From NCBI RefSeq assembly GCF_964031245.1, contig NZ_OZ035017.1:215402-279401 (forward strand): a stretch of 64,000 bases of DNA, in the 5' to 3' direction. Positions 10,211 through 62,073 of this stretch are shown one piece after another; positions within the stretch are counted from its first letter, which is position 1, and every line of letters starts with the position of its first letter. Made by a program: the position numbers and the translations under genes. The stretch is from Rickettsiella endosymbiont of Miltochrista miniata (GTDB taxonomy: Bacteria > Pseudomonadota > Gammaproteobacteria > Diplorickettsiales > Diplorickettsiaceae). The notes under the pieces were generated by a model. It made no database searches, was not told the origin of the DNA, and worked only from the letters and a program-made list of their open reading frames with translations.

Positions 10211-10216
10211 ACGAGG

Positions 10217-15437: not shown

Positions 15438-16952
15438 ATGACTATACCCAAAGAATTTCAAGCTGTGGTTAGGCGCACGAGGACGAACGAGCGCAATGTA
15501 TACGGAATACATGAGCACGTGAGTACCGATGTGCAACAACACCACAGCTTGAAAGGCGAAGCGTATATTAGTGTGTTTGATTTGTTCTCAATTGGTATAG
15601 GCCCATCGAGCTCGCATACCGTAGGCCCTATGAAAGCAGCCTGCGCTTTTGTGGAAAATCTGGCGCTTGATTTTGAATTATTTAATGAAATTAGCCGTTT
15701 ACAGGTTGAGCTGTTTGGTTCGCTAGCGCTAACTGGCCGCGGTCATGGCACGGATGTTGCAATTTTAAATGGCCTTGAAGGACAACTTCCTGAAACAGTC
15801 ATTCCCGATGAGGTTGTTCCGCGCGCCAAGTCAATTATTGAAAGTGGTAAAATTCAGCTGGCAGGGAAAAAATTTATCTCATTTTCTGAGAAAACAGACC
15901 TATTATTTCTACAAAAAGCATTGCTACCATTGCATACCAATGGTATGCGTTTTAGTGCCTTTAATACCCAAGGTGTTCTATTAAGTAGTCAAATTTATTA
16001 CTCTATCGGTGGTGGTTTTATTGTCACTGAACAAGAGTTTGGCCAGCAATATAAAGATGCTGTTCCAGTATCTTATCCCTTCTCTACAGCCAGTGAGTTG
16101 TTTAATGCCTGTAAAAAAAATAACTTAACGATTTCGGAGCTAATGTTGGCTAATGAACAACAATTAGCACCCGATAGAGATGTACGCACTGATTTATTGA
16201 AAATAGCCGATACCATGCAAACCTGCGTGGATAGCGGTTGTCATGCTCAGGGAATATTACCCGGCGAGCTTAATGTCAAACGTCGGGCACCGGAACTTTT
16301 CAGAAAAATGAATGATAAAACCACTTCGAAATTAGCGGCGTTTCCAGGGGCATTATTGTGGCCAACCATTTACGCGATGGCAGTTAATGAGGAAAATGCT
16401 GCTGGAGGTCGTGTGGTGACGGCGCCAACTAATGGGGCGGCAGGTATTATTCCGGCGGTATTAACTTATTATCGCCGTTTTTATGAAGATGTCAGTGAAC
16501 AATCGATCACTAATTTTTTATTAACTGCAGGTGCTATCGCTTTACTTTATAAAATGAATGCATCGATATCCGGTGCAGAAGTGGGTTGTCAGGGTGAAGT
16601 CGGTGTGGCTTGCTCTATGGCCGCAGGAGCATTGACGGCAGTTTTAGGCGGCACGTTAGAACAAATAGAAAATGCCGCGGAAATGGCGATGGAACATCAT
16701 TTGGGATTAACTTGCGATCCAGTAGCGGGCTTAGTTCAAATTCCCTGTATCGAACGCAATGGTGTCGGTGCGGAAAAGGCGATTAAATTGGCTTATTTAG
16801 CGTTAATGGAGGATGGGAAAAATAAAAAAGTATCCTTAGATAAAGTCATCGAAACCATGTTTGCCACTGGAAAAGATATGATGGCTATTTACAAAGAAAC
16901 CTCTTTAGGTGGTTTGGCAAAGACACTCGCTGTTAATATCACGGAATGTTAG
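15438..16952 (+). CDS. sdaA: L-serine dehydratase (single-chain, Fe-S). The conserved body starts at ...[22 protein letters not shown], so the ORF's first ~45 codons may be an extension or the true start is an in-frame GTG/TTG.
   Basis: SdaA N-terminal signature and the C-terminal alpha-domain GxCQGEVG motif. Confidence 0.88.
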
Positions 16953-16979
16953 CTATTCTTTTTCTATTTAAAAAAGCCT

Positions 16980-17080
16980 GTCATGGCGAGGCCGAAACGT
17001 CAGTGAGGCTGTGGCCATCCAGAAAAAATTAAGTTTTTCATTGGATTGCCGCGCGCTACGCGCTCGCAATGACGAAAAAT
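16980..17080. repeat. Repeat family B copy 1 (~101 nt; terminal inverted repeats GTCATGGCGAG...CTCGCAATGAC; internal GC hairpin)
   Basis: About 85% identical to 53257-53359. Located in the 3' intergenic region after sdaA. Confidence 0.65.
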
Positions 17081-33440: not shown

Positions 33441-34664
33441 TTGAAGGAAGTTGTTTTGGAAATTTATTTAGTTGGTGGGGCAGTGCGTGATCAATTATTG
33501 GGTTATCCGATAAAGGAACGTGATTATGTCGTCGTGGGCGCAAGTCCTGAGGAAATGTTAAAGCAAGGATTTCGCTTGATTGGCAAGGATTTTCCAGTCT
33601 TTCTTCATCCTAAAACTCACGAAGAATATGCATTAGCGCGTACAGAACGCAAAATTGGGCCTGGTTATAAAGGTTTTTCCTGCTATGCAGCGCCTGATGT
33701 GACGCTCGAGGACGATTTACAACGTAGAGATTTGACTATTAATGCCATGGCGCAAAATAACAGTGGTCATATTATCGATCCTTTTCAAGGCCAGAAAGAT
33801 ATTGATAATAAGCTATTACGACATGTCTCTCCTGCCTTTAGCGAAGATCCGGTACGTATTTTACGCGTAGCACGTTTTATGGCGAGGTTTTCGCCATTAG
33901 GTTTTCGAGTGGCTAAAGAAACCATGGAGCTAATGAAAGCTATGGTATCTATCGGCGAAGTGCAGGCGTTGGTTTCAGAACGAGTTTGGCAAGAATTTTC
34001 CAGAGCGCTCACTGAGCCTGCGCCTCAAGCTTTTATTAAAACTTTGTATGAGTGTGGCGCATTAGCAGTGTTATTTCCAGAATTGCAAGAATTATATGTA
34101 CAATATGAACGTATAGCGGATCCACGTTCTATAGGGCAACATAGCTATTTAGCTGTTTTGGAAAAAGCGGTGGCATTAACGGATGATCCACAAGTACGTT
34201 TCGCAGCAATACTTTGTGATTTAGGTAAGGGTGTTGCAAAAGAAGAAACCGAAGCGGGAATTCATAAGATACAAGCCTTATGTCAGCGCTATCGTATACC
34301 TCGTGCCTATGCTTTACTTGCCGCCACAGCGGCGGCTTATCATCTACTTTGTCACCGCGCATTAGATCTAGATGCTCAATCTTTGTATATGTTACTAGAA
34401 AAAACCGATGCATTTAGGCAGTCTTCACGCTTAGATCAGTTTTTATTGGTTTGTGAAGCAGACTTTCAAGCTTATTCTGGACTAGGCAAAATCATTTATT
34501 TGCAAAAAGATAGAGTGTTAGCGGCTTTTACTGCGGCTAAAAAAGTATCTGCCAATAAGATAAAAAAATCGGGTATTACTGGCGCAGCGTTAGGGAAAAA
34601 ACTCATTGAATATCGGATTAAAGCGATATATGAGTTTCTACAAAAAAGCTCTATCGAGCGTTAA
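33441..34664 (+). CDS. cca: CCA-adding tRNA nucleotidyltransferase (TTG start; the second in-frame TTG at 33456 may be the real start)
   Basis: EIYLVGGAVRDQLLG...DYVVVG head domain. Confidence 0.85.
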   Translation: MKEVVLEIYLVGGAVRDQLLGYPIKERDYVVVGASPEEMLKQGFRLIGKDFPVFLHPKTHEEYALARTERKIGPGYKGFSCYAAPDVTLEDDLQRRDLTINAMAQNNSGHIIDPFQGQKDIDNKLLRHVSPAFSEDPVRILRVARFMARFSPLGFRVAKETMELMKAMVSIGEVQALVSERVWQEFSRALTEPAPQAFIKTLYECGALAVLFPELQELYVQYERIADPRSIGQHSYLAVLEKAVALTDDPQVRFAAILCDLGKGVAKEETEAGIHKIQALCQRYRIPRAYALLAATAAAYHLLCHRALDLDAQSLYMLLEKTDAFRQSSRLDQFLLVCEADFQAYSGLGKIIYLQKDRVLAAFTAAKKVSANKIKKSGITGAALGKKLIEYRIKAIYEFLQKSSIER

Positions 34665-34666
34665 AT

Positions 34667-35767
34667 TCAAGTGCGAAGCGTATACTTTTGAGAGCGTAAA
34701 TAATGATCCATAATGACTAAGGCTGCCATTGCGTCAACAATAGGGACAGCTCGGGGTAGAACACAAGGATCATGTCTGCCTTCGGTAACTAACTCCAGCA
34801 TCTCGTTTTGTAAGTTAAGTGTTTGTTGTGGTTTGCTAATGCTCGAAGTCGGTTTGAATGCAACACGAAAATAAATATCTTCACCGGTAGAAATACCACC
34901 TAAGGTGCCGCCAGCATGATTAGAGGTAAATGACGGTTTGCCATTTTTAATGATCATTTGATCATTATGTTCACTACCGCACATGCCAGCTCCTCTGAAT
35001 CCTGATCCAATTTCAAATCCTTTTACGGCGTTTATGCTCAGCATTGCTTTGCCTAAATCAGCGGATAATTTATCAAACACAGGTTCACCTAGCCCTGGAG
35101 GAACGTGACGTATCACACATTTGATGACACCCCCGATGGAATCACCCTCATTTTTTACACTTTCTACTAATTGAATCATTTGTGCAGCTAAAATCGGGTC
35201 TGGACAACGAATCATATTGGCTTCAATTTGGGTTGGAGTTATCGTTTGATGATCGATTTGCGTAGATAAATGACCGACTTGCTCTACGTAGCTAATAATT
35301 TCAATATTTAATTTTTGGTTTAAGAATTTTTTTGCAATAGCTCCCGCAGCGACTCTAGCCAATGTTTCTCTAGCACTGGCACGGCCACTGCCACGAAAAT
35401 CACGTCGCCCATATTTCATCATATAAGTAAAATCAGCGTGAGACGGTCTATATACATTTTTTAATGCTTCATAATCTTCCGGTCGCATATCGGCATTATA
35501 GGCTAGCAGTAATATCGGTGTGCCAGTGGTTTTTCCTTCAAATACACCGGATAATAAATGAATGGTGTCACGTTCATTTCTGGGGCTAGTAATATGACTC
35601 TGTCCCGGTTTGCGTCGATCTAACTCTAATTGAATGTCATGCTCTGAAATTTCCAACCCTGGAGGACAGCCATCGACTATCACGCCCACAGCTCCCCCAT
35701 GCGATTCGCCACAGCTAGTTATTTTAAATAATTTGCCAAAAGAATTGCCGGCCATATTATTCCTCAA
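34667..35767 (-). CDS. aroC: Chorismate synthase
   Basis: N-terminal GESHG signature; 366 aa. Confidence 0.93.
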   Translation of the reverse strand: MRNNMAGNSFGKLFKITSCGESHGGAVGVIVDGCPPGLEISEHDIQLELDRRKPGQSHITSPRNERDTIHLLSGVFEGKTTGTPILLLAYNADMRPEDYEALKNVYRPSHADFTYMMKYGRRDFRGSGRASARETLARVAAGAIAKKFLNQKLNIEIISYVEQVGHLSTQIDHQTITPTQIEANMIRCPDPILAAQMIQLVESVKNEGDSIGGVIKCVIRHVPPGLGEPVFDKLSADLGKAMLSINAVKGFEIGSGFRGAGMCGSEHNDQMIIKNGKPSFTSNHAGGTLGGISTGEDIYFRVAFKPTSSISKPQQTLNLQNEMLELVTEGRHDPCVLPRAVPIVDAMAALVIMDHYLRSQKYTLRT

Positions 35768-36926
35768 TTGTTTTTTTTATTGCTAGGTTGACGATTTTAT
35801 CTGTAACAGGATGAACATAGTTACCATTATTAATATAGATACTGCCAATGTCATTTAATAGTGCGTAATGTACTTTCCCTAATCGAATTTTTTTATCGAT
35901 TTTTGTTGCCTGCAGGATTTCTGCTGGCTTATATTTTTGTAGATCTTTTCCATAAATACCTAATTGTGCGAACAGATTTTTTATTATTAATAAAGCTTTG
36001 CTATCTAATAAACCTAATAAATAAGAAATATTTGCCTCGACTAATATGCCATAAGCCACCGCATATCCATGTAATAAAGTGTAATTTGATATCTTTTCTA
36101 AGGCATGGCCGATGGTATGGCCAAAATTGAGAACGCTACGCTCCCCTTGTTCTTTTTCATCTCGACCTACAACAGCGGCTTTAATTTTAACTGCTTTGGT
36201 GACAATTTCATTCAAATATAGGGCACTTCCTTGGATAAGATACTTAAGATTTGATTCCGTGTAATAAAGGCCTTTTGCATCATAAGTTAAAAACATTTTA
36301 ATGGCTTCTATTAAGCCATTAATCATATTTTTTTTGGATAAAGTTTTTAATAACATAACATCGATAACAACACATAAAGGTTGATAAATAACTCCTATTA
36401 AATTTTTACCATATAGCGTATTAATACCCGTTTTTCCGCCGATACTACTATCCACTGTAGCCAACAAAGTAGTTGGAATTTGGATGTAAGGGACGCCACG
36501 TAAATAGGTTGCTGCAATGAATCCGGTCAGATCTCCTACAACACCACCACCTAGGGCAATAATTAACGTATCCCGATTACAACCATGTAACTGCATGTTA
36601 TTTTCTAACCTTTGTTTAGTTTTATAGGTTTTAAATTTTTCACCTGCTGGGAACGAAAATAATAAACTTTTGTAGCCTGCTTGCTGCAAACATTTTTGTA
36701 ATTCTAAGCCATAAAGTTTTTTCACAGTATGGTCAGTGATAATAACTATTTGTTGGAATGCTAATCTTGGTAACCAAGCAGAAAAATCATATAAATTAGC
36801 CCCAATAATAACAGGGCAGTTTATGCTTTGTTCGATAGGCATGGGCATAGAAATTTTATTTAACATGATTGTACTTCTTGGGCTAAGGTAAGTAATAGAT
36901 TTTCGGTTTGTTCCCAATTTAAACAA
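35757..36926 (-). CDS. aroB: 3-dehydroquinate synthase (N-terminus likely shorter than the ORF)
   Basis: GGGVVGDLTGF nucleotide-binding motif and metal-binding His residues. Confidence 0.85.
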   Translation of the reverse strand: MFKLGTNRKSITYLSPRSTIMLNKISMPMPIEQSINCPVIIGANLYDFSAWLPRLAFQQIVIITDHTVKKLYGLELQKCLQQAGYKSLLFSFPAGEKFKTYKTKQRLENNMQLHGCNRDTLIIALGGGVVGDLTGFIAATYLRGVPYIQIPTTLLATVDSSIGGKTGINTLYGKNLIGVIYQPLCVVIDVMLLKTLSKKNMINGLIEAIKMFLTYDAKGLYYTESNLKYLIQGSALYLNEIVTKAVKIKAAVVGRDEKEQGERSVLNFGHTIGHALEKISNYTLLHGYAVAYGILVEANISYLLGLLDSKALLIIKNLFAQLGIYGKDLQKYKPAEILQATKIDKKIRLGKVHYALLNDIGSIYINNGNYVHPVTDKIVNLAIKKTIEE

Positions 36927-37906
36927 GGATCGGTAATCGATAAGCCATTTAAGTCGATAGAAGTAGAATTACAAGCTTCAAGCTTTTGATTTCCTTCCTT
37001 TAAATAACTCTCTAGCATGAAGCCTTTCATTAAACGGCGTAATTCCGGAAACATTTTTAAGTACTGCATAATCTCAGAAATAGCAGTAAGTTGTGCTCGA
37101 TGATCTTTTTTTCCATTAACCAAGCTATTATCATGGCTAACATCAATAACCACCGCTGGGTTTTTTATTTGCTGCGCCAGCATATGTTGCTTTATAGATT
37201 CAAGATGTGCGCGCGAATAATTTGGCATTTTATTGCAACCACGCAAAACCAAATGGGCGTAGGGATTCCCAGGTGTTCGTATTTCATAGCCATGCATAGC
37301 AGCGATATGTGAATGCTGTGCAGCGACGACGCTGTTGATACTCACATCGATAGCACCATGTGTTGGATTTTTCATGCCCACAGGACAATCTGCAGCAGAT
37401 GCAAAAATTCGATGTTCATGATCTTCACTACTTCTGGCACCAATCGCAAACCATGAAACCAACTCTAAAAATCCACGGGAATTATGCGTAAATAAACATT
37501 CATCAGCGATAGGTAATCCGAGCTCCACAATCTTGACCATCATTTCGCGAACATAATGCATGCCTGCTTCAATATTAGGTTCAGCATAGGGATCAGGTTG
37601 ATTAAGCGGGCCGGTCCAACCTTTGGTGGTGCGGGGTTTTTGAATATATACACGCATAACAATTTTTAATGATTGCTTGACGCGCGCATTCACTTTTAAT
37701 AAACGTTCTGCGTATTCCAGCACCGCATCCTTGGGCCATGCTGAACAGGGGCCGATAATCATTAATAAGCGACGATCTCGACCTGCTAAAATATCCTTTA
37801 TTTCTCGCCTGTCGAGCATAATTTTTTGGTGTCCTTCGGCAGATAAAGGATATAATTGAATAATCTCTTCTACGCGAGGTAATTCTTTAAGTTGTAGATA
37901 ATTCAT
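36860..37906 (-). CDS. 3-deoxy-D-arabino-heptulosonate-7-phosphate synthase, class I (AroF/G/H type)
   Basis: 348 aa; IIGPCS motif; DAHP synthase I family. Confidence 0.85.
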   Translation of the reverse strand: MNYLQLKELPRVEEIIQLYPLSAEGHQKIMLDRREIKDILAGRDRRLLMIIGPCSAWPKDAVLEYAERLLKVNARVKQSLKIVMRVYIQKPRTTKGWTGPLNQPDPYAEPNIEAGMHYVREMMVKIVELGLPIADECLFTHNSRGFLELVSWFAIGARSSEDHEHRIFASAADCPVGMKNPTHGAIDVSINSVVAAQHSHIAAMHGYEIRTPGNPYAHLVLRGCNKMPNYSRAHLESIKQHMLAQQIKNPAVVIDVSHDNSLVNGKKDHRAQLTAISEIMQYLKMFPELRRLMKGFMLESYLKEGNQKLEACNSTSIDLNGLSITDPCLNWEQTENLLLTLAQEVQSC

Positions 37907-38736
37907 AAAAAAGTCGCTGTTTGGTCTTGTATTAATATTTTTCTAAGTTTTTTTATAATCGTCGGCGTAAGATATTGGCCGGTTAGCAATTCGATTTGTT
38001 TTAATCCTTGACCTATAAACATATCTAAACCAGAAATAATGTTTGCGCCTTGTTTTTTTGCTTGTTTTAACAGTGGAGTCATTAACGGGTTGTAGACCAT
38101 ATCAAACACAACTTGCTTTGGATTAAATATATATACTGGTAGCTGTGACGTATCTACATTTCGGTAGAATCCAAGGGGTGTCGTGTTGATGATGATATCG
38201 ATCGACAGACCATCTAGTTCATTACTGGTAACAACCTTTCCACCAAATTTTTTTGCTAAAACCGTTGCTTTTTTTGATGTTCTATTTATCCAAAAAAGTT
38301 GGGCTTGGTTTTTTTTGAGAAAATAGGCCACCCCTCGCGCCGCACCACCTGCACCAATTATCAGAACTTTTTTATTGCTGACGGCGATATGGCGTAAGGC
38401 AAAATTGATCCCATCAATATCTGTGTTGTATCCATACAATTTCCCATCACGTTGAATAATAGTATTGGTCGCTTGTAATTCGTTGACTTCATCACTGCAA
38501 TGATCGAGATAGTTAATAATTTTTTCTTTAAAAGGTGAAGTTACTGCTGTGAGTGGAATTTCTAGCGTTTTTATTACCGTTATTAATGATTTAAGCGGCA
38601 GCGAGCGCGGCTGTGCTAAGAAAATTGCATTGATCCCGAGTAATTGATAGCTAAACGTATGTAACATAGGACTTTGCGAATGTTCTAGTGGATAACCAAT
38701 CACCATATTTAATTGTGTTTTGCTGTTTATTTTCAT
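37903..38736 (-). CDS. aroE: Shikimate dehydrogenase
   Basis: GYPLEHSQSP N-terminal motif and GAGGAARG NADP-binding motif. Confidence 0.85.
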   Translation of the reverse strand: MKINSKTQLNMVIGYPLEHSQSPMLHTFSYQLLGINAIFLAQPRSLPLKSLITVIKTLEIPLTAVTSPFKEKIINYLDHCSDEVNELQATNTIIQRDGKLYGYNTDIDGINFALRHIAVSNKKVLIIGAGGAARGVAYFLKKNQAQLFWINRTSKKATVLAKKFGGKVVTSNELDGLSIDIIINTTPLGFYRNVDTSQLPVYIFNPKQVVFDMVYNPLMTPLLKQAKKQGANIISGLDMFIGQGLKQIELLTGQYLTPTIIKKLRKILIQDQTATFL

Positions 38737-39170
38737 GATTTTAAATATTCCATTAAGGTATTCACCGCTTCTCGATAACCTTGTTCTTTCTTACCTTTTA
38801 TGATTTTTATACAAGCCGGTGCAATGACGGATTGTTTTCTCCATGCTTCGCGATGCTGCGTATCAGATAAATGTACTTCCACAACTGGTAAACCAGTATC
38901 AATTAGAGCGTCATGTAAACCATAGCTATAATGTGTGAATGCCCCTGGATTAATAATGATGCCCAAGCAATTTTTGCTCTCCGCTTGCAATTTATTAACT
39001 AAATTACCTTCATGATTTGATTGATAGGAAACGATTTTAAATCCATGTTTTTTTGCTTCTTGGGTAGTGATAGCGCTAATCTCTTTGAGGGTTAAATTGC
39101 CATAATGCATTGCATCGCGTTCACCTAAAAGATTCAAATTTACTCCATGTAATAGTAATAACTTAGACAT
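38733..39170 (-). CDS. aroQ: 3-dehydroquinate dehydratase, type II
   Basis: 145 aa; LLLHGVNLNLLGERD and type II signature. Confidence 0.9.
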   Translation of the reverse strand: MSKLLLLHGVNLNLLGERDAMHYGNLTLKEISAITTQEAKKHGFKIVSYQSNHEGNLVNKLQAESKNCLGIIINPGAFTHYSYGLHDALIDTGLPVVEVHLSDTQHREAWRKQSVIAPACIKIIKGKKEQGYREAVNTLMEYLKS

Positions 39171-41010
39171 AGTGGTTTTGCTCCGAGTTTATTTGGAGAT
39201 GAACAAGTGCCTCGTTGACAGCATGATCAATAGAATGGTTGTTATTGATAGTAAAAGCTGCCAATTTTTGGTAAGTTTCACTGCGTTCATCCCATAAACG
39301 ATTAAATGATTCATAAGAATCTTCACTTGGATCAAAAAAACTAGGACGACCTTCGATCATAATGCGCTCAAACACGATGCCACGTGGTGCTACCACATGC
39401 AGTAAACGATGCGGTTTTAGCAGGTCTTGATTAAACTGACTTATAGTCGTTCCCCCGCCTAAAGAAATCACACAGGCTGGTAATTTAAGTGCTAGTTGTA
39501 ATGCTTCTGACTCTAATTGGCGATAATAGTGTTCGCCGTGTGACTGCATAATTTCGCGACAAGAAAAAGTTTCGAGATAAATTTTTTTATGTAAAATCTC
39601 AACTTCTCGATCGAGATCAATAAAGCTTTTATTAAGTGCTTTTGCTAAATGTCTACCTATCGTTGTTTTACCTACATGTTTAAATCCGATTAGAATGATC
39701 GGATTATTAATACCGGTATTTTTCAGACTTATGTTTGCTCCTATTTTTTGCATGGAGGGAACAAAATCTGGATAGGTTTTGTTAATGGCTATTGCGTCTG
39801 TTATCAATGTTGTTCCGCGTGCGATCATTCCAGCAACTGTAAGTGCCATTACCGTACGGTGATCACCAAATCCTTTTACCAAGCTACCTTTTAGATTGCT
39901 TTGGTGCACGATGATTCCGTCTGGATTTTCCTCTATTTTGGCACCCATTTGTCTCAACCCTGATGTCATGGAATGAATGCGATCGGTTTCTTTAATACGT
40001 GCTTGGATGACATTGTAAAGTTCAGTTTTACCAATTGCTTTTGTGGCAATGACGGCCAGAGTCGGTAATAGATCGGGGATATCATTGGCATCAATACGCA
40101 TCCCTCTTAACGGTTTGCCACCTTTGATTTTTATATTATTTTGATTGATCTCTATCTCTGCGCCCATCTCTTGTAAAATACTTATTAATCGTTTATCTCC
40201 TTGTCCATCATTATTGTTTAATCCTAGTATTTGCACTTCTCCTGGAATGAGCGTTGCGGCAGCAATCAGATAAGATGCCGAGGAAAAATCACCATTGATA
40301 TAGGCACGAATGGGCTTATATGCTTGCTTTCCATGGATGTGAAAAGTGTCGATATTAGCAACACGCTGGTGCGTATAATTGATCCCTAGTTCTTGCAACC
40401 ATTCGAGTGTCATATCAACATACGGACGTTCGTGTAAATCTTTTACCGAGACGACACTATTATTTTCAGCACACGGCAGCCCCATCAATAAAGCGGATAA
40501 ATATTGAGAACTAATGCCTGCTATCTCAGTAACCCCTCCTTTTAATGTACCGCTCACTAAAAGCGGCAAATGCCCCGCTGACTCAAGATACTGGATATGC
40601 ATACCTAGCTGATTTAATGCATCGACCAATGGTTTAATGGGTCTGGCCCGCATTTGTTGGTCGCAGTTAAGGAGGATAGGGTTGATATAATTTTTACGTA
40701 ATCCTAATAATGGCAGGATAAATCGAGTCGTTATACCTGAATTTCCGGTGTGGATTTCTGCGGCGGCAGAGCTGAAAGCTAGCCCTTCACTTTGTATGCT
40801 GAGCTTATGGGCGGTTAGGTGAATGTTGGCTCCTAACGCTTTACATACTTCGATAGTCGCGCGTGTGTCATCAGAGCTCAATGGATTAAGCAAAGTTGAT
40901 TCTCCTTTGGCAAGTAATGCAAATAACATGCCGCGGATAGTGTGTGATTTCGAGCTGGGTGAGAGGACGCTCCCACTTAAAGCTATGCTTGGATTTACGA
41001 TAAGAGTCAT
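39163..41010 (-). CDS. aroA: Bifunctional EPSP synthase (N-terminal, ~430 aa) fused to shikimate kinase (C-terminal, P-loop GFKHVGKTTIG)
   Basis: EPSPS motifs (LLNPLSSDDT, GNSGITTRF), then IILIGFKHVGKTTIGRHLA...DLD shikimate kinase Walker A and DxD. Confidence 0.85.
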   Translation of the reverse strand: MTLIVNPSIALSGSVLSPSSKSHTIRGMLFALLAKGESTLLNPLSSDDTRATIEVCKALGANIHLTAHKLSIQSEGLAFSSAAAEIHTGNSGITTRFILPLLGLRKNYINPILLNCDQQMRARPIKPLVDALNQLGMHIQYLESAGHLPLLVSGTLKGGVTEIAGISSQYLSALLMGLPCAENNSVVSVKDLHERPYVDMTLEWLQELGINYTHQRVANIDTFHIHGKQAYKPIRAYINGDFSSASYLIAAATLIPGEVQILGLNNNDGQGDKRLISILQEMGAEIEINQNNIKIKGGKPLRGMRIDANDIPDLLPTLAVIATKAIGKTELYNVIQARIKETDRIHSMTSGLRQMGAKIEENPDGIIVHQSNLKGSLVKGFGDHRTVMALTVAGMIARGTTLITDAIAINKTYPDFVPSMQKIGANISLKNTGINNPIILIGFKHVGKTTIGRHLAKALNKSFIDLDREVEILHKKIYLETFSCREIMQSHGEHYYRQLESEALQLALKLPACVISLGGGTTISQFNQDLLKPHRLLHVVAPRGIVFERIMIEGRPSFFDPSEDSYESFNRLWDERSETYQKLAAFTINNNHSIDHAVNEALVHLQINSEQNHYV

Positions 41011-41040
41011 TTTTCGCTACTCATTATTGACTATACTCTT

Positions 41041-41076
41041 GTAACGCTGTATCATTACAAGAGTATATCATAACGA
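41041..41076. promoter_or_regulatory. 13-bp perfect inverted repeat TATACTCTTGTAA-N10-TTACAAGAGTATA in the aroA / trpE divergent promoter region; candidate operator
   Basis: Perfect palindrome located 10 nt upstream of the trpE start and about 30 nt upstream of the aroA-aroK start on the other strand. Confidence 0.4.
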
Positions 41077-41086
41077 GACTTTACGA

Positions 41087-42520
41087 ATGATGCAAGCTTT
41101 ACCCTTAGATGAATTTCAGCAGTATGCCAACGATGCCAAGCGAGTAGCAGTTTTCAAAGAGATTCCTGCTGATCAGCTAACTCCCATCCAGATTTATTGT
41201 CGGTTGAAAAAAGCCTATGCAGCAGAAGGGGCCATGTTTGAGGATCTCCATCAAAGAGACGCCGTTCGTTACTCTTTTATATGTTTTGAACCTATTGCAA
41301 GCCTGACTAGAAATGACGTCGATGATAATCATCCATGGGCAGAGCTGCGGGATTTACAGTCACAGCTACGTTTTGCGACGCGACCCGAAGTAGCCGATTT
41401 AATTACTAGCGCAATAGGCTTTATTACCTATGATGCGGTGCGTTATTTTGAAGCAATACCTATTCATCCAGTCGTTCATACTAAATTGCCATTAATCGAA
41501 TTTAATTTTTATGCTCTGAATCTTAGTTTCAATCATGAAAAGCAAACCCTGTTAATTAGTTACTTGGTTGCAGTAGGGGCAGATCCAGAGCAAGCCTATT
41601 ATCAGGCGCAACAGAAAATAGTCACTATTATAGAACTTTTAAGCACAGCGGTTTATGAAATAAAGGTGCCGGCTACACGACAAATAACTGATTCGGTCGA
41701 AGTTGATATATCCGATGCGGATTTTATGCTTAAAGTAGAAAAAGCTAAGAATTTTATTATCCGAGGCGATGCTTTTCAGATTGTTATCTCGAGATGCTAT
41801 AAATGTAACTATTTTATTTCTCCTTTAGATATCTATACAACATTACGCCGAGTTAGTCCTGCTCCGTTTATGTTTTATTTTACAAGTGGTGCAAATGTCA
41901 TTATCGGAGCCTCGCCTGAGCGCTTGGTCAGTGTATATAACAAAAAAATTACCGTGAATCCTATTGCAGGTACACGTAAACGTAAGAAAGAGCTAAGTGA
42001 TAAGTCGATCGAAGAGGACTTACTAAATGATCCTAAGGAACGAGCGGAGCATATGATGCTGGTTGATTTAGCCAGGAATGATGTCGGTGCGGTAAGTGTT
42101 CCTGGTAGCGTGCAGTTAAAAGATTTTTTTCAAGTAAAACATTATTCTCACGTCAGTCATATTACATCGACTGTCATGGGTGAACTGCAAGAAAAGTACG
42201 ATGCTTTAGATGCCTTTACTGCTGTTTTTCCAGCCGGAACGCTTAGTGGTGCCCCAAAAATTCGTGCCATGCAAATTATTAATGAATTAGAGACTACCAG
42301 TCGAGGATTATATGGTGGAGCTATCTGTCGTCTTGATTCTTTAGGGAATTTAGATAGTTGTATCGCTATTCGAATGGCCATACTCCAAGAAGGGGTAGCG
42401 ACCATTCGAACGGGAGCGGGTATTGTCTATGATTCGAATCCTGCTGACGAAGCACAAGAAACCTATCAAAAAGCATCCGCTATGTTGGATGCCATTAGCC
42501 AAGCACATGCGGGAGAATAA
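41087..42520 (+). CDS. trpE: Anthranilate synthase component I
   Basis: 477 aa; chorismate-binding domain; LSGAPK-like motif. Confidence 0.93.
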   Translation: MMQALPLDEFQQYANDAKRVAVFKEIPADQLTPIQIYCRLKKAYAAEGAMFEDLHQRDAVRYSFICFEPIASLTRNDVDDNHPWAELRDLQSQLRFATRPEVADLITSAIGFITYDAVRYFEAIPIHPVVHTKLPLIEFNFYALNLSFNHEKQTLLISYLVAVGADPEQAYYQAQQKIVTIIELLSTAVYEIKVPATRQITDSVEVDISDADFMLKVEKAKNFIIRGDAFQIVISRCYKCNYFISPLDIYTTLRRVSPAPFMFYFTSGANVIIGASPERLVSVYNKKITVNPIAGTRKRKKELSDKSIEEDLLNDPKERAEHMMLVDLARNDVGAVSVPGSVQLKDFFQVKHYSHVSHITSTVMGELQEKYDALDAFTAVFPAGTLSGAPKIRAMQIINELETTSRGLYGGAICRLDSLGNLDSCIAIRMAILQEGVATIRTGAGIVYDSNPADEAQETYQKASAMLDAISQAHAGE

Positions 42521-42521
42521 G

Positions 42522-43133
42522 ATGTTATTAATTATAGATAACTACGATAGTTTTACTTATAACCTTTATCAAGCTGTGGCATCTTTTTATAGCGACGTCT
42601 GCGTTATTCGCAACGATAAAATTACTATCAATGATATTAAACGAATGTCACCGGCGGGAATTATTTTATCTCCGGGTCCTGGGCGACCTGAAACAGCAGG
42701 GATTTGCGTTGCTTTAATTCATGCTTTAGTAGCGGGTGAACTTTCAGCACCATTGTTAGGTGTTTGCTTGGGCCATCAAGCTATAACCATTGCTTTAGGC
42801 GGACGTGTTATTCAGTCGGAAAAAATAGTGCATGGTAAAGATGACATTATTTTTCATAAGCAAACGGGCCTATATCAAAAGCTTACTCAGCCATTTAAAG
42901 CAGGTCGTTATCATTCATTGATTAGTGAGCGCGCAACTTTACCTTCTACATTGATCATTGACGCTGAAAATGAGCGGCAAGTCATTATGGGTGTGCGACA
43001 TCATCAATTACCTATTTATGGTGTCCAGTTCCACCCCGAATCTATTTTGACACCAGAAGGACCACTTTTATTACGGGAATTTCTTGCCATCTGCAATAAA
43101 AACTCAAAAACAGGTGTAACGGATGTTGCTTAG
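42522..43133 (+). CDS. trpG: Anthranilate synthase component II (glutamine amidotransferase)
   Basis: MLLIIDNYDSFTYNL, GVCLGHQ catalytic Cys, and HPES. Confidence 0.9.
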   Translation: MLLIIDNYDSFTYNLYQAVASFYSDVCVIRNDKITINDIKRMSPAGIILSPGPGRPETAGICVALIHALVAGELSAPLLGVCLGHQAITIALGGRVIQSEKIVHGKDDIIFHKQTGLYQKLTQPFKAGRYHSLISERATLPSTLIIDAENERQVIMGVRHHQLPIYGVQFHPESILTPEGPLLLREFLAICNKNSKTGVTDVA

Positions 43134-44130
43134 ATCCAGCATAGAAAAATTGATGCGTGGTGAAGATTTGCAAAGCCATGTTTGTCAACAAGTAGTGGAT
43201 GAGATCTTATGCCCGACTATTAATCCATTACAAATTGCAGCTTTTTTAGTGTTATTACGAGCCAAAAATGAAACCGCTGATGAATTATCAGCTATTGTGA
43301 AAGTTCTGCGCAACAGAATGGTAGTGGTGCCGACCAAGCATGCCGTGCTAGATATAGTCGGAACAGGTGGCGATGCATCGAATACCATAAATATTTCTAC
43401 AGGCAGCGCGATTCTTGCTGCAAGTTGTGGGATTAAAGTCGCTAAACATGGCAATCGTTCGATATCGTCATTAACAGGTTCCGCAGATGTGCTCGAAGCC
43501 TTAGGTGTGAATATTCAATTAACTCCCGATCAAGTGAGCAAAAGTATAGCTCAAATTGGCATTGGTTTCTGTTACTCGCCGAATTTTCATCCCATGACCC
43601 AAGCACTGCGACTTTTTCGAAAAACATTAAATGTCCCTACCACGTTTAATATTTTAGGCCCTTTATTAAATCCTGCTAACGCAGCCCATATTGTTTTAGG
43701 TGTGCTTGATGAAGCATTACTCCCAATTATGGCAGATGTATTATTACAAACAGGTAGCGATCGGTCAGTGGTGGTGCATAGCATGGGCTTAGATGAAATC
43801 AGTTGTGTAGGTCCTACAAAAATTATTGAAGTCAGCAAGCAAGAAAAACATGAATATATGATTGATCCATTACAGTTTGGCTTGCAACGTTGCACGATTA
43901 CCGATTTGCGTGGCGGAGAGGCAGAAATTAATGCACGTCTGTTGTTAGATACTTTTAAGGGAAAACGTGGAGCTATTGCAAATACACTTATTTTAAATAC
44001 AGCCGTTGCTCTCTACATTTATGGATTATATCCATCAATCTCGGAAGCTTTATTACACGCAAGTGATAATTTATATAGCGGCAAAGCCTTAAGATTATTA
44101 AATGCCTGGATTGAATTTTCTCATGACTAA
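43123..44130 (+). CDS. trpD: Anthranilate phosphoribosyltransferase
   Basis: GTGGD motif and NxxGP. Confidence 0.93.
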   Translation: MLLRSSIEKLMRGEDLQSHVCQQVVDEILCPTINPLQIAAFLVLLRAKNETADELSAIVKVLRNRMVVVPTKHAVLDIVGTGGDASNTINISTGSAILAASCGIKVAKHGNRSISSLTGSADVLEALGVNIQLTPDQVSKSIAQIGIGFCYSPNFHPMTQALRLFRKTLNVPTTFNILGPLLNPANAAHIVLGVLDEALLPIMADVLLQTGSDRSVVVHSMGLDEISCVGPTKIIEVSKQEKHEYMIDPLQFGLQRCTITDLRGGEAEINARLLLDTFKGKRGAIANTLILNTAVALYIYGLYPSISEALLHASDNLYSGKALRLLNAWIEFSHD

Positions 44131-44926
44131 CAGACTTACAGCGATTCTAATGGAAAAACAGCGTGAAGTAGCCGATTTGCGCCAGCGATTGGCGAGCAAT
44201 AATAATCATGCCATCACACAAGTACTGCGCGGCGAGTTAGTGCCGAAACGTCCACAGAGCTTTAAAGCGGTGTTAAATGCTCCCGCTCTTTCTGTGATTG
44301 CAGAAATTAAACGTAAATCACCTAGTAAAGGTGAGTTGGCCGCTATTCAAGATCCCATTAGCTTAGCAGAATGTTATATTTCGGGTGGTGCTAGCGCATT
44401 ATCAATTTTAACGGATAAGAAATTTTTTGCTGGCGATATCACTGATCTGATCCAAGTGTCAAAGGCAATAGCTGATCGAAGCATTCCAATTATTCGTAAG
44501 GATTTTATTATCGATAAGATACAAATTGCAGAAGCTGCCGTTGCCGGAGCAAGTGCAGTGTTGTGTATTATCGCTGTTCTTGGAAAAAAAACTAAAATCT
44601 TACTGGAGTTTGCTCGTTCGATTAATCTCGATGTACTCGTTGAAATTCATGATCAGAATGAGCTCGCGATCGCTTTAGATTGTGGCGCAGAGATCATCGG
44701 AGTTAATAATCGTAATCTCAAGACATTCACTGTTGATACGCAGCATGCATTACATATGGTCTCTGCAATACCGGATAATATTATTAAAGTTGCAGAGTCG
44801 GGTATTACGCATCCTGCTTTGGCAAGAGAATATTATCAGGCTGGTTATAATGCCGTATTAATTGGTGAATCATTAGTCAAATCGGATGATCCTGAAAAGT
44901 TTATTAGGGAATGTTCTTATGACTAA
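44102..44926 (+). CDS. trpC: Indole-3-glycerol phosphate synthase (alternative start 44123, in the ATGACTAA stop-start overlap with trpD)
   Basis: IAEIKRKSPSKG and LVEIHD motifs. Confidence 0.9.
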   Translation: MPGLNFLMTNRLTAILMEKQREVADLRQRLASNNNHAITQVLRGELVPKRPQSFKAVLNAPALSVIAEIKRKSPSKGELAAIQDPISLAECYISGGASALSILTDKKFFAGDITDLIQVSKAIADRSIPIIRKDFIIDKIQIAEAAVAGASAVLCIIAVLGKKTKILLEFARSINLDVLVEIHDQNELAIALDCGAEIIGVNNRNLKTFTVDTQHALHMVSAIPDNIIKVAESGITHPALAREYYQAGYNAVLIGESLVKSDDPEKFIRECSYD

Positions 44927-45554
44927 TTACTTGATAAAAATTTGTGGAATTCGTAGTGCCGAAATGGCATCACTGGCGGTTATAGCGGGTGCTAACTTGA
45001 TTGGAATTATTTTTCACCCCTTATCACCGCGTTATGTTGGAATAGAACAAGCTATACGTATTTCTCAAGCAGTGAGAGCATCAGGTGCATTGCCTGTAGC
45101 CGTATTTGTTCATCATACCGCGATTGAAATGCAATGCATCTGCGAACTCACTAATATAAATATCGTTCAGTTACATGGCGTCGCATCGCGTGCATCCCAT
45201 CAATTATTACCTGGGGAATACCAACGGATCTATGTGCAAACGGTTTCAAATCAAGGTGAGTTACAAACCGATGAAGGCTTGCGTTTCCTTGATGCGGATC
45301 GGGATTTAATCTTGATTGATCATAGTCAACCTGGGCAGGGAAATAAAATTAAGCAAGCTTTTCACTATCATTTACCTTTTCGTTGGTTATTAGCAGGTGG
45401 ACTGACCGCATTTAATGTGGCAGCAGCGATTAATGATATGCAACCTAATGGCGTCGATGTATCGAGTGGTGTTGAATTAAGTAAAGGAAAGAAAGATATT
45501 TTTCTCATTAAGCAATTTATTCAATCCGTAAGAGGCAAGTTTCATGTTAGCTAA
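44919..45554 (+). CDS. trpF: Phosphoribosylanthranilate isomerase (stand-alone, not fused to trpC)
   Basis: IKICGI N-terminus; about 210 aa; same ATGACTAA overlap with the trpC stop. Confidence 0.85.
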   Translation: MTNYLIKICGIRSAEMASLAVIAGANLIGIIFHPLSPRYVGIEQAIRISQAVRASGALPVAVFVHHTAIEMQCICELTNINIVQLHGVASRASHQLLPGEYQRIYVQTVSNQGELQTDEGLRFLDADRDLILIDHSQPGQGNKIKQAFHYHLPFRWLLAGGLTAFNVAAAINDMQPNGVDVSSGVELSKGKKDIFLIKQFIQSVRGKFHVS

Positions 45555-46740
45555 AGATTTCTTAGTTGAGAATAGAGGTCGTTACGGGGAGTTTGGTGGA
45601 ATATATCTTCCGGAATTATTAATGCAACCTATCGAAGAACTTATCTTTGCTTGGGATAACGCTAAAAAAGATCTTATTTTTAAACAGGAATTAAATTTTC
45701 TTTTAAAAAATTATGCCGGAAGACCTACGCCATTAACAGAAATTCCTGCTTTTGCTGCAAAAATTAATGGACCGAGAATCTTTTTAAAACGAGAAGATTT
45801 ATTACATACGGGGGCACACAAATTGAATAATGCCTTGGGCCAATGTTTATTAGCCAAAAGGATGGGTAAAACGCGTGTCATTGCCGAAACTGGAGCGGGT
45901 CAACATGGTGTAGCGACGGCAGCAGCTTGTGCGCGACTTGAGTTGAAGTGCGTGATTTATATGGGCAGTAAAGATATGCAACGTCAGTCAAGCAATGTGT
46001 CACGCATGCAATTGATGGGTGCGACAATTGTTGCGGTCGAACAAGGCTCAGCGACTTTAAAAGAGGCAGTGAATGAAGCTTTGCGCGATTGGTCCTCATC
46101 GTTTAGCGATACGCATTATTGTTTAGGCTCAGCATTAGGACCACATCCTTATCCTGCTATGGTTGCAGAATTTCAAGCAGTTATTGGGAGTGAAAGCCAT
46201 CAACAATGTCAGCAACAAATTGGCAGCAATCCTAATATAGTTATTGCCTGCGTGGGTGGGGGTTCGAATGCAATTGGGCTATTTTCAGGATTTTTCTCCG
46301 ATGAAGAGGTACGCATGATAGGTGTAGAAGCCGGAGGACATGGTAAGCAACTTGGAGAGCATGCCGCACGATTTTATACTGCGAGTCCGGGTGTTTTACA
46401 TGGTTGTTACACTTTTATATTGCAAGATCGGCATGGACAAATTGCACCGACGAGTTCGATTTCAGCCGGTTTAGATTATCCTGCGGTTGCTCCGCAACAT
46501 GCTGAACTTTTTAAACGTCGTCGTGTCGAATATGTGGCAGCCAATGATGATGAAGCAATATATGCATTAAAATTATTAGCTAGAACAGAAGGTATTATTT
46601 GCGCGTTAGAATCCGCGCATGCTTTAGCGCATTTAATTAAAATTGCTCCTATGCTTGCTAAAGACCAGATTGTGCTAGTGAATTTATCTGGTCGTGGCGA
46701 TAAAGATTTACCACAATTAATGGATAAGTGTGTGATTTAA
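45544..46740 (+). CDS. trpB: Tryptophan synthase beta chain
   Basis: PLP-binding HTGAHKLNNALGQ and GGGSNAIG. Confidence 0.93.
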   Translation: MLAKDFLVENRGRYGEFGGIYLPELLMQPIEELIFAWDNAKKDLIFKQELNFLLKNYAGRPTPLTEIPAFAAKINGPRIFLKREDLLHTGAHKLNNALGQCLLAKRMGKTRVIAETGAGQHGVATAAACARLELKCVIYMGSKDMQRQSSNVSRMQLMGATIVAVEQGSATLKEAVNEALRDWSSSFSDTHYCLGSALGPHPYPAMVAEFQAVIGSESHQQCQQQIGSNPNIVIACVGGGSNAIGLFSGFFSDEEVRMIGVEAGGHGKQLGEHAARFYTASPGVLHGCYTFILQDRHGQIAPTSSISAGLDYPAVAPQHAELFKRRRVEYVAANDDEAIYALKLLARTEGIICALESAHALAHLIKIAPMLAKDQIVLVNLSGRGDKDLPQLMDKCVI

Positions 46741-46741
46741 G

Positions 46742-47524
46742 ATGAAAACCCTATCGCGAATACAACAATTATTTCAAAACGGTAAGGCATACACGGCCTA
46801 TTTAACTGCGGGCGATGGTGGCGTGCAATCTACACTCGATGCAGCGCTTGCTCTAATTAAGGGCGGCGTAAATATGCTAGAAATTGGCGTACCTTTTTCC
46901 GACCCTATTGCTGATGGACTTATCATTCAGCGTGCATCGCAACGATCATTGGCAAAAGGAACTTGCTTAGCAGATGTTTTATGGATAACAAAACAGATCC
47001 GCCAACAGAGTGATATTCCAATCATTTTATTCAGTTATCTTAATCCGATATTATCTGCTCTACCATCTGATTTTTTACCCGCAGCAAAAAATGCAGGTAT
47101 TGATGGTCTTTTACTGGTTGATTGTCCCTTGGAAGCATCAGATTTTATTCATCAACAATGTAATAAAAATGACATAGCGCTTATTTATGTTATTGCACCA
47201 AGTACCCCATTGACACGCATTAAGATAATCAATACCTATGCGCAGGGATTTTTATATTATGCCTGTCAGAAAGGCACTACAGGTTTGCGCAATGAATTGC
47301 CCAAGAATTTTCGAGAAAAAATAAATACGCTCAAATCAATGGTAGATTTACCTGTTATTGTTGGGTTTGGTATTTCAAATCAAGAAGCAGTATACCGTGT
47401 GTTACAGTATGCTGATGGGGTTGTTGTAGGATCGTTATTTGTTAAGGCATTGGAAGAAGGGGCGAGTCCGTCGACTTTAACGAAACTTGCACAAAATCTA
47501 TATCCGAAGCCAGTACATAATTGA
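46742..47524 (+). CDS. trpA: Tryptophan synthase alpha chain
   Basis: LEIGVPFSDPIADG signature. Confidence 0.9.
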   Translation: MKTLSRIQQLFQNGKAYTAYLTAGDGGVQSTLDAALALIKGGVNMLEIGVPFSDPIADGLIIQRASQRSLAKGTCLADVLWITKQIRQQSDIPIILFSYLNPILSALPSDFLPAAKNAGIDGLLLVDCPLEASDFIHQQCNKNDIALIYVIAPSTPLTRIKIINTYAQGFLYYACQKGTTGLRNELPKNFREKINTLKSMVDLPVIVGFGISNQEAVYRVLQYADGVVVGSLFVKALEEGASPSTLTKLAQNLYPKPVHN

Positions 47525-47581
47525 TATACAGGGTTGCTTTTGCAATAATAGAATATTAATCGATTTTTACAGGCACATTAT

Positions 47582-47857
47582 ATGAATCAAGCAGGTTGGC
47601 GCGATTTTATTAAATTGTGCTTAAAGACCGATAATGAAAAGGTATTATCTTCTTTATTCGATTTTATTTTAACCCAAGAAGAAAAAGAGAGCATAGCCTT
47701 ACGCTATTTAATTATAAAAGAATTACTTAAACAGGAAAAGACGCAGAGAGACATGGCTAAAGATCTGCAGGTAAGTATTGCTAAAATAACACGTGGATCG
47801 AATGAGCTTAAACGGACATCACCCAAACTTATTGAGTTTTTCAAAGAAAATATATAA
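47582..47857 (+). CDS. trpR: Trp repressor
   Basis: 91 aa; HTH region IAKITRGSNELK matches the TrpR IATITRGSNSLK motif; adjacent to the trp operon. Confidence 0.8.
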   Translation: MNQAGWRDFIKLCLKTDNEKVLSSLFDFILTQEEKESIALRYLIIKELLKQEKTQRDMAKDLQVSIAKITRGSNELKRTSPKLIEFFKENI

Positions 47858-61481: not shown

Positions 61482-61979
61482 TTGCCCATGAATTTATTTA
61501 ATTATTCTACATGGAGTTTGTTTTTTACCACTATTTTGCAAGCTGTAGCCGGATATACCTGTCCTAATATAGCCACGATTAACTCAAGAATAGATGCAAA
61601 TAAAACCATGCGATTCCCATTAGCGCAGTGTGTTATCCCAACACGTCGAGGTTATGCTTGGCTTTACAGAGACCATACTAATCAAATTAAAAAATTTTAT
61701 AACGGAGACAGTCATGCAGCAGAAATTGTTTCTATATGGTATCAAAAACCCACCCCTTTTATAAGTCCATTCTTAACTTGCTTTTATAAAGATAAAAACA
61801 AAAAGTTTTTTTCTTTATTAATGGGAGATAAAGGAACCTCGCGAGTCAATACTTCAGCGATAGAAGCTAATTGTAAGCACTGGAAAATATTTCACAGTGA
61901 TGGTCTCTATGTTTGCGGAGAGGAAACGGATGTCAAAAAAGATCTAAAAAAGTGCCAGTTTTATCTTAAGTCCCGTTGA
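61482..61979 (+). CDS. Small secreted Cys-containing protein, paralog 1 of 4 (likely start at the second Met, 61488)
   Basis: Signal peptide ...ILQAVAG|YTCPN; conserved MRFPL, KKFYNG, TC.YKD, YVCGE and KCQFYLK motifs shared with paralogs 2 and 4. Confidence 0.6.
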   Translation: MPMNLFNYSTWSLFFTTILQAVAGYTCPNIATINSRIDANKTMRFPLAQCVIPTRRGYAWLYRDHTNQIKKFYNGDSHAAEIVSIWYQKPTPFISPFLTCFYKDKNKKFFSLLMGDKGTSRVNTSAIEANCKHWKIFHSDGLYVCGEETDVKKDLKKCQFYLKSR

Positions 61980-62073
61980 AATATAAGGAGGTGAACCTAA
62001 AAACATACTAATTAAGCAGGATTGTTATTATAAAAAATATTATCAATTATTAAAATTATTAAAAGGAAAATTT

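Follow-up and report, generated by a model that had tools for sequence, protein, structure and literature searches.

A compact divergent block of shikimate and tryptophan genes with a putative TrpR operator in a Rickettsiella endosymbiont

Genes for chorismate and tryptophan synthesis have been found side by side in several lineages. Simkania negevensis carries the operon trpR-trpEGDCFBA-aroA, in which aroA codes for a DAHP (3-deoxy-D-arabinoheptulosonate 7-phosphate) synthase, and a related, partly decayed trp operon has been described in Coxiella burnetii (Bonner et al. 2014, PMC3937554). Supraoperons of aro and trp genes are known from Bacillus, Nostoc/Anabaena and Desulfovibrio vulgaris (Song et al. 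2005, PMC1173090), and Thermococcus kodakarensis possesses aro, trp and tyr-phe operons together with a regulator, Tar, encoded in its aro operon (PMC6737238). Here we analysed a stretch of 64,000 nucleotides from the Rickettsiella endosymbiont of Miltochrista miniata (contig NZ_OZ035017.1, positions 215,402 to 279,401; hereafter the window), in which a 13-kb block at 34667-47857 holds a set of shikimate genes on the minus strand, a trp operon with trpR on the plus strand and, between the two, a palindrome that resembles the operator of the tryptophan repressor TrpR. The aro/trp linkage is already known, and the block differs from the described cases in the presence of all seven shikimate steps, the divergent operons, the 3' position of trpR, the fusion of aroA to aroK and the variant half-site of the operator. 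Paper-library literature on tryptophan and shikimate synthesis in Rickettsiella, and on fusions of 5-enolpyruvylshikimate-3-phosphate (EPSP) synthase with shikimate kinase in Legionellales, held no description of this cluster.

Gene identities were taken from NCBIfam profile scans of the open reading frames (ORFs), and start sites were set from homologue lengths and overlaps. All 14 genes were recognised, with intact ORFs and lengths as in homologues. The minus strand codes for aroC, aroB, a class I DAHP synthase, aroE, a type II aroQ and an aroA-aroK fusion, and the plus strand for trpE, trpG, trpD, trpC, trpF, trpB and trpA, followed by trpR. Since DAHP synthase, AroB, AroQ, AroE, the AroK and AroA domains and AroC were all recognised, the seven steps of the shikimate pathway are covered. 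A first-pass annotation, made from the letters of the sequence, had already proposed these gene calls, the seven steps, the divergent layout, unfused trpC and trpF and a trpR gene 3' of trpA, and the profile scans and ORFs confirm each of them.

The two operons diverge from a control region that, read from the sequence, measures 76 bp (41011..41086). An inverted-repeat search located in it an extended perfect palindrome with 13-nt arms, TATACTCTTGTAA at 41032-41044 and TTACAAGAGTATA at 41055-41067. A palindrome between the operons had been reported before at 41041-41076; it does exist, is conserved and resembles a TrpR operator, but its coordinates are 41032-41067. Its centre forms the putative core of a TrpR operator, the 20-bp dyad TGTAACGCTGTATCATTACA (41040..41059). 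Alignment of the spacers of six loci shows the 20-bp core fixed as TGTAAYGNTRTANCRTTACA while the outer arms vary, yet remain complementary in locus L083. The dyad core covers the spacer and the -10 element of a putative sigma-70 promoter of trpE, TTGACT-17 nt-TATCAT (41027..41055, plus strand; 10/12 in the promoter scan, start site inferred), and lies 27 bp ahead of the trpE start. This is the only good promoter match in the 76-bp spacer, and a TTGAC-like hexamer is found 7-8 nt upstream of the dyad in 10/10 related loci. From the promoter scan, which together with the terminator scan performed overall at chance (39 found versus 45 expected; 12 versus 11.7), only the trpE promoter is relied on, being backed by conservation. 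The exact pattern TGTAA-N10-TTACA occurs a single time in the window, and all 11 exact matches in 1.47 Mb of retrieved loci lie directly upstream of trpE, with 27-32 bp from dyad to trpE start in the 10 sites measured.

The product of trpR matches the structures of E. coli TrpR at E = 5e-11. Alignments show that the residues of the tryptophan pocket (Thr44, Arg54, Arg84 and Gly85 in E. coli numbering) are conserved, and so are Arg69, Ile79, Ala80 and Thr83 of the DNA reading head, but Lys72 is replaced by Ala and Thr81 by Lys. The operator in the crystal structure of E. coli TrpR is TGTACTAGTTAACTAGTACA (PMC2504314), and the dyad of the window shares with it a length of 20 bp and the TGTA/TACA ends. 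Moreover, the dyad accompanies TrpR homologues in three operon settings. In the first, aro genes diverge from trp-trpR; in the second, found in L086, the divergent gene is one for DAHP synthase; and in the third, found in L089, trpR closes an ABC-transporter operon that has a one-mismatch dyad, TGTACTCATGCAGCGTTACA, upstream. At more distant TrpR loci (34-36% identity), the promoters of trpR or trp bear dyads of the form TGTAC-N10-GTACA: a pair with an 8-bp offset stands directly before trpR in L041, and a single one lies between divergent trpR and trp operons in L044. Because the dyad is conserved, has the frame and ends of the E. coli type and is accompanied by a TrpR that keeps its ligand and DNA residues, the trp operon is very probably repressed by TrpR, and from these sequence comparisons we regard TrpR as the likely binder of the dyad, with good confidence. 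Two observations weigh against this assignment, namely that a TrpR homologue lies beside an unrelated membrane-protein gene in L088 with no dyad within 10 kb, and that the inner half-site reads AAYG where the E. coli operator has CTAG.

Tandem dyads with an offset of 8 bp are present in L041 and L091; the corresponding +8 site of the window has 2-3 mismatches and is not claimed as an operator. The L089 operon (7075-10288), whose TrpR homologue is 64% identical, codes for a PF04392 binding protein, a permease and an ATPase, and may be a TrpR-controlled tryptophan uptake system.

In the mechanism that we propose, tryptophan-bound TrpR would bind the dyad at 41040-41059, where the trpE promoter has its spacer and its -10 element, and would thereby shut off trpEGDCFBA as well as trpR, the latter through read-through. 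Since the 76-bp spacer is too short for a leader peptide or an attenuator, transcription of trp would be controlled by repression alone. The terminator scan found no terminator-like site in the spacer, and Rfam at gathering thresholds gave no match over the whole window, so no T-box, leader or other described RNA was seen there. A promoter-like site also stands ahead of trpR (TTGATA-17 nt-AATAAT with TG before it; 47521..47549, plus strand; promoter scan), and its sequence TTGATA ... TTTTGTAATAAT is kept in five relatives. A second, autoregulatory operator was considered at this position from a partly conserved TGTAAT...ATTA(C/A) with 3 mismatches in the window, but it is not claimed, because the overlapping extended -10 element could explain the conservation by itself.

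In order to place the block among its relatives, GTDB species representatives were searched with an alignment of fusion proteins, and individual homologues were examined on their own contigs. All recovered members of the fused-AroAK clade with usable flanks show the divergent aro/trp layout, which makes 10 distinct loci including the window. Identity of AroAK is 97% in L001, 88% in L002, 70% in L083, 67% in L087 and the P0008 locus, 65% in L084/85, 62% in L081 (a 1.78-Mb contig), 58% in L091 and 54% in L090. The consolidation of these genes, singled out by the first-pass annotation as unusual, is so when compared with E. coli, but the gene-order comparison shows it to be normal in this lineage, an outcome that the annotation itself had listed as speaking against its claim. 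The genes flanking the window's block are shared only with L001 and L002, so the block persists as a unit while its surroundings change. Some variation was seen within this pattern: L091 is without aroQ, and its trpA has no neighbouring trpR; in L090, TrpF is fused to TrpB, and genes for prephenate dehydratase and chorismate mutase come after aroC, in a 16-gene cluster (3257-16980); and L086 has only a DAHP synthase gene divergent from trpEGDCFBA-trpR and keeps the dyad. Other Legionellales-like metagenome-assembled genomes (MAGs) carry an operon of aroA, aroK, (aroQ, aroE), DAHP synthase, aroB and aroC with no trp genes within 10 kb. Taken as a whole, the explanation of the block as a lineage-typical module under the control of TrpR and the dyad seems to us the probable one, at a confidence somewhat below that for TrpR as the binder.

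Two of these loci show further peculiarities. The record of L001, the nearest locus among public genomes, bears the name 'Wolbachia endosymbiont of Folsomia candida MAG-FC1' but looks mislabelled, as both similarity and gene content indicate a Rickettsiella-like bacterium. In L086, an insertion that separates the trpE promoter from the gene for DAHP synthase consists of a near-perfect palindrome of about 100 bp (2990-3085; GGTTGGGCTGAGCGTTTTTTGCGAAGCCCAACG ... and its complement), which may be a terminator acting in both directions or a repeat element.

The identity of the dyad's ligand and the reach of its control allow more than one explanation. Its half-sites, TGTAA and TTACA, resemble the halves of the E. 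coli TyrR box, TGTAAA-N6-TTTACA, and the dyad could be bound by another regulator, such as a TyrR-like aromatic amino-acid regulator, or be a mere structural element of the promoter. We consider this improbable: the pentamers are spaced by N10, as in the TrpR operator, and not by N8 as in TyrR boxes; all sites are TGTAA-N10-TTACA in a 20-bp frame versus the 18-bp frame of TyrR; the dyad occurs together with trpR in three different operon contexts; distant TrpR loci have the E. coli-type variant in the same frame; and no TyrR-like gene lies within the window. With TrpR as the favoured ligand, it had further been suggested that both operons are co-regulated through the palindrome. The distance of the dyad is constant to trpE and not to aroAK. 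The dyad lies 29 bp from the aroAK start in the window, 29-35 bp when L001, L002, L081, L083, L087 and L091 are included and 48 bp in L084, whereas in L086 and L090 it stays with trpE and is 140 bp and 203 bp away from the divergent gene. Since 29 bp can fit only a -10 element and a short leader, an aro promoter must either overlap the dyad or fire through it from upstream, and TrpR occupancy would then lower aro transcription too, so that one operator would act as a switch for both operons. This small distance makes co-repression of aro plausible in this genome, and from the geometry we judge it about an even call. The E. coli repressor has aro targets as well, aroH and aroL, besides its own gene. 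Several points weigh against extending the control to aro. There is no good sigma-70 match for an aro promoter in the 76-bp spacer, the best by eye being TTGTAA-19 nt-TATAGT; the distances in L086 and L090 imply that regulation of aro is not a conserved property of the dyad, and since the operator keeps a constant distance to trpE only, shared regulation is a matter of geometry in the compact genomes; and chorismate is also required for folate, quinones, phenylalanine and tyrosine, so full repression by tryptophan of the only visible shikimate operon would be harmful. The dyad may then be a TrpR operator for trp alone, with aro either constitutive or under control at another point, such as feedback inhibition of DAHP synthase and nothing else. 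The constant 27-32 bp to trpE against 29-203 bp to the divergent gene, the lack of a convincing aro promoter in the spacer and the other essential uses of chorismate favour this possibility, which we hold to have a serious but less than even chance. Against it stand the window and six relatives, in which the promoter cannot avoid the dyad, the aro targets of TrpR in E. coli, and the repeated linkage of a DAHP synthase gene to trp and trpR, as in L086 and in Simkania (PMC3937554). The boldest version takes the single 20-bp operator as one switch for the twelve activities that convert phosphoenolpyruvate plus erythrose-4-phosphate into tryptophan, in a self-contained cassette with an EPSP synthase-shikimate kinase fusion like the 'TIPS' mutant discussed below, and supposes that the cassette or its aro half may have been exchanged among host-dependent lineages with reduced genomes, namely Legionellales-like bacteria, MAGs labelled as Candidate Phyla Radiation (CPR) and DPANN archaea. 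We think this unlikely. If true, it would mean that an intracellular arthropod symbiont runs its shikimate pathway essentially as a supply line for tryptophan.

The origin and integrity of the block can be weighed in the same manner. Acquisition as a unit had been raised as a possibility, and the 13-kb block might accordingly be a recently acquired island that was transferred in one piece. Flanks that differ between relatives, so that the block behaves as a unit, the transposase gene near the block in L081, and the occurrence in CPR- and DPANN-labelled MAGs of a similar aro operon, in which aroK again adjoins aroA in this order, would suit such an event. Nevertheless, the block gives no compositional signal, with a GC content of 0.393 versus 0.374 in the rest of the window and a GC content at third codon positions inside the window's range, and rough neighbour-joining trees of AroA, AroC and DAHP synthase place a monophyletic Rickettsiella-like clade nested in Legionellales-like sequences. 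Recent acquisition as a unit is therefore unsupported; since both flanks are also common to the window, L001 and L002, and divergence of the block genes tracks across loci, we give it a small chance only. Loss or pseudogenisation of the pathway in related intracellular bacteria (PMC3937554) also raises the question of whether the cluster is a decaying remnant, similar to the C. burnetii trp operon, that no longer makes tryptophan. This is very improbable in view of the 14/14 intact ORFs of homologue-like length, the invariant catalytic residues of EPSP synthase and shikimate kinase and the conservation of the block over a deep clade. The lineage-typical module under TrpR control remains the explanation that we prefer.

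The aro half of the block has counterparts far outside this lineage. The order aroA-aroK-aroQ-aroE-DAHP synthase-aroB-aroC, with aroA and aroK 35-55% identical, recurs in MAGs that bear the labels Peribacteria (including a closed chromosome of 1.49 Mb), Saccharibacteria, Parcubacteria, Magasanikbacteria, Uhrbacteria and Gracilibacteria. Candidatus Iainarchaeum MAGs likewise have aroA next to aroK (36-42% identity), followed by a different aro set without DAHP synthase or aroQ. The loci concerned are L003-L004, L007-L012, L029, L032-L044, L047, L060 and L066-L067. The DAHP synthase of the CPR-labelled loci groups beside gammaproteobacterial sequences in a rough neighbour-joining tree, and in L039-L041 and L044 a distantly related trp operon lies directly upstream of aro in the same direction. 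These comparisons suggest older transfers of shikimate operons and repeated joining of aro with trp. The CPR- and DPANN-labelled operons point to whole-operon transfer into host-dependent lineages, or else to mislabelled bins.

Locus L041, from a MAG labelled Gammaproteobacteria, is worth describing in its own right. Positions 1-17000 hold 15 co-directional genes, trpR, trpEGDCFBA, aroA, aroK, aroQ, aroE, DAHP synthase, aroB and aroC. Between trpR and trpE (1950-2700), some 500-700 nt are GC-rich and show no convincing ORF, in a locus that is otherwise AT-rich. It had no Rfam match at E <= 0.01, and could be an undescribed structured RNA or the remnant of a gene.

The aroA-aroK fusion (39163..41010, minus strand) had been predicted as a single ORF of 615 aa, and so it is, with no internal stop. 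It codes for EPSP synthase (step 6; residues 14-425, TIGR01356 404 bits) followed by shikimate kinase (step 5; residues 438-605, shikimate-kinase models), and the protein is identical to WP_342220307.1 from the Rickettsiella endosymbiont of Miltochrista. The same two-domain architecture is found in about 65 protein clusters of a large protein database. An alignment of fused homologues shows that the catalytic residues of both domains are invariant, including the EPSP synthase equivalents Lys22, Arg124, Asp313, Lys340, Arg344, His385, Arg386 and Lys411 and, in shikimate kinase, the Walker A GxxxxGKT and GGG motifs. In most related loci aroA and aroK are separate neighbours, often with overlapping stop and start codons. 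They are joined into a single ORF in the Rickettsiella-like clade and, as an independent case, in one group of Peribacteria-labelled MAGs. The fusion probably arose by loss of the stop codon between adjacent overlapping genes. It unites two steps that follow each other in the pathway, and the fused enzyme may channel the intermediate between them.

In sequence, the EPSP synthase domain comes nearest to the class I enzymes: its top PDB matches, enterobacterial and Vibrio enzymes, score 225-235 bits, against 148 bits for the Coxiella enzyme (3ROI) and about 110 bits for CP4-type enzymes. However, its active-site loop departs from that class. Where the E. coli class I enzyme reads GNAGTAMRP (Gly96-Thr97...Pro101), the fusion reads GNSGITTRF (residues 89-97, window 40720-40746), so that Ile stands in place of Thr97 and Phe in place of Pro101; neither residue varies among 18 fused homologues. 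In E. coli, the T97I/P101S double mutant of EPSP synthase is the glyphosate-resistant 'TIPS' enzyme. With Ile and Phe at these two positions, the domain may be a naturally glyphosate-tolerant, class-I-like EPSP synthase; this natural EPSP synthase-shikimate kinase fusion carries them where mutation confers glyphosate resistance in E. coli and plants. The eukaryotic pentafunctional AROM protein (PDB 7U5S, 6HQV) likewise has an EPSP synthase domain followed directly by shikimate kinase, and its residues ~403-951 are co-linear with residues 14-532 of the fusion. Unlike the bacterial fusion, which is limited to these two domains and leaves AroB, AroQ and AroE as separate ORFs, AROM unites 3-dehydroquinate synthase, EPSP synthase, shikimate kinase, 3-dehydroquinate dehydratase and shikimate dehydrogenase in one polypeptide. 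A special kinship to fungal AROM was considered and rejected, since AROM scores 161-173 bits and the monofunctional E. coli-type enzymes score higher, at 225-234 bits.

The remaining aro genes lie on the minus strand downstream of the fusion. The type II 3-dehydroquinate dehydratase gene aroQ (step 3; 38733..39170; NF003805 162 bits, cut-off 146) has an ATGA overlap with aroE, the shikimate dehydrogenase gene (step 4; 37903..38736; TIGR00507 224 bits, cut-off 200), which in turn has an ATGA overlap with the gene for the class I (E. coli-type) DAHP synthase (step 1; 36860..37906; NF009395 349.5 bits, cut-off 343; TIGR00034 293 bits). The latter falls under the cut-offs of the isozyme-specific AroH and AroG models. 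The 3-dehydroquinate synthase gene aroB (step 2; 35757..36866; TIGR01357 334 bits, cut-off 305; 369 aa versus 363-369 in homologues) starts at an ATG at 36866 that shares ATGTTAA with the DAHP synthase stop, and the chorismate synthase gene aroC (step 7; 34667..35755; NF003793 479.8 bits; 362 aa versus 360-363) starts at an ATG at 35755 after GAGGAA. The longest ORFs, from which the first-pass annotation had read its starts, proved too long for several genes, and the fitted starts are 35755 for aroC, 36866 for aroB, 42522 for trpG, 44123 for trpC and 44919 for trpF.

On the plus strand, trpE codes for component I of anthranilate synthase (41087..42520) and scores 431 bits with TIGR00564, under the equivalog cut-off of 517.7, the top models being all TrpE. 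It is followed by trpG, the glutamine amidotransferase component II (42522..43133; TIGR00566 202 bits; 203 aa versus 203-206 in homologues), whose ATG at 42522 is one base past the trpE stop, and by trpD, anthranilate phosphoribosyltransferase (43123..44130; TIGR01245 368 bits), with an 11-nt overlap with trpG. The unfused trpC, indole-3-glycerol-phosphate synthase (44123..44926; NF001377 264 bits, cut-off 260; 267 aa versus 267-268), and the unfused trpF, phosphoribosylanthranilate isomerase (44919..45554; 134 bits with models of that enzyme, under the equivalog cut-offs; 211 aa versus 207-212), precede the genes for tryptophan synthase beta, trpB (45544..46740; TIGR00263 586 bits), and alpha, trpA (46742..47524; TIGR00262 226 bits). 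The top model for trpB is the TrpF/TrpB bifunctional NF010376, at 625 bits, matched on the TrpB half of the model. The 91-aa Trp repressor, of the family TIGR01321/PF01371, is coded by trpR at 47582..47857 (TIGR01321 92.7 bits, cut-off 67.25). Gene junctions throughout are overlaps or gaps of 1-2 nt, with the sole exception of 57 nt ahead of trpR. The sequence ATGACTAA stands both at 44123 (trpD stop, trpC start) and at 44919 (trpC stop, trpF start), and this identity had been taken as a hint of translational coupling. We rejected it as a special signal, since a third copy occurs at 34713 within aroC and only 2 of the 8 bases are free in an 8-nt start/stop overlap; nothing here goes beyond ordinary overlapping genes.

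The surroundings of the block are ordinary housekeeping genes, with a leucine-dehydrogenase-like gene and a branched-chain keto-acid dehydrogenase operon downstream of trpR. At the other end, cca, coding for the CCA-adding enzyme, converges on aroC with 2 bp between the genes (34664-34667), which leaves no space for a terminator. Elsewhere in the window, four tandem paralogous ORFs of 158-165 aa (61482-63772; GC 0.31) share 26-53% identity with the first of them. Their N-terminus is hydrophobic and they have conserved cysteines, so that they resemble a family of small secreted proteins. A 747-aa ORF with no family match (28962-31205), in the lowest-GC part of the window (GC 0.28), and a 652-aa ankyrin-repeat protein (2522-4480) are candidates for host-directed effectors.

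Our results indicate that an intracellular, arthropod-associated clade has retained the whole tryptophan pathway in a compact and apparently repressible form, in contrast to Coxiella burnetii and most chlamydiae. This bears on which partner supplies tryptophan or chorismate in these symbioses; in Coxiella-like symbionts of ticks, a link has been drawn between their shikimate pathways and the serotonin of the host (PMC12152204). The locus also offers a predicted operator variant that would extend the recognition code of TrpR, and a minimal natural divergent promoter for the control of a whole pathway. Current understanding of these systems is not overturned.

Compared with the TrpR regulon of E. 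coli, the locus shares the repressor family, a dyad of 20 bp that ends in TGTA/TACA and lies over the -10 element of the trp promoter, and the conserved Thr44, Arg54, Arg69, Ile79, Thr83 and Arg84. It differs in the AAYG inner half-site, in Ala and Lys at positions 72 and 81, in having no leader peptide or attenuator, and in that the aro genes, scattered in E. coli, form one operon adjoining trp. The likeness to Simkania lies in a 91-aa TrpR beside a complete, compact and overlapping seven-gene trp operon with a linked DAHP synthase, and no attenuator has been reported there either. The order is different, however, as Simkania has trpR first and DAHP synthase last, whereas here trpR follows trpA and DAHP synthase is the third gene of the divergent aro operon. 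With C. burnetii there is the further resemblance of a TrpF-TrpB fusion, present in the window's relative L090. Unlike in both of these species, DAHP synthase sits here with the other six shikimate activities and aroA is fused to aroK, and unlike in C. burnetii the genes are intact. The supraoperons of Bacillus, Nostoc/Anabaena and Desulfovibrio vulgaris (PMC1173090) also join common-pathway aro genes physically to a trp operon, but they are co-directional, cover part of the shikimate pathway, often include tyrA or hisC and are controlled by TRAP (trp RNA-binding attenuation protein) or by attenuation, while the aro and trp operons described here lie on opposite strands and diverge from a 76-bp spacer. 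In T. kodakarensis, finally, a regulator encoded in the cluster recognises a palindrome, which there stands in the aro promoter as well as in that of trp; the regulator is an archaeal, unrelated activator with the motif TGGACA-N8-TGTCCA, whereas the Rickettsiella block pairs its palindrome with a repressor of the TrpR family.

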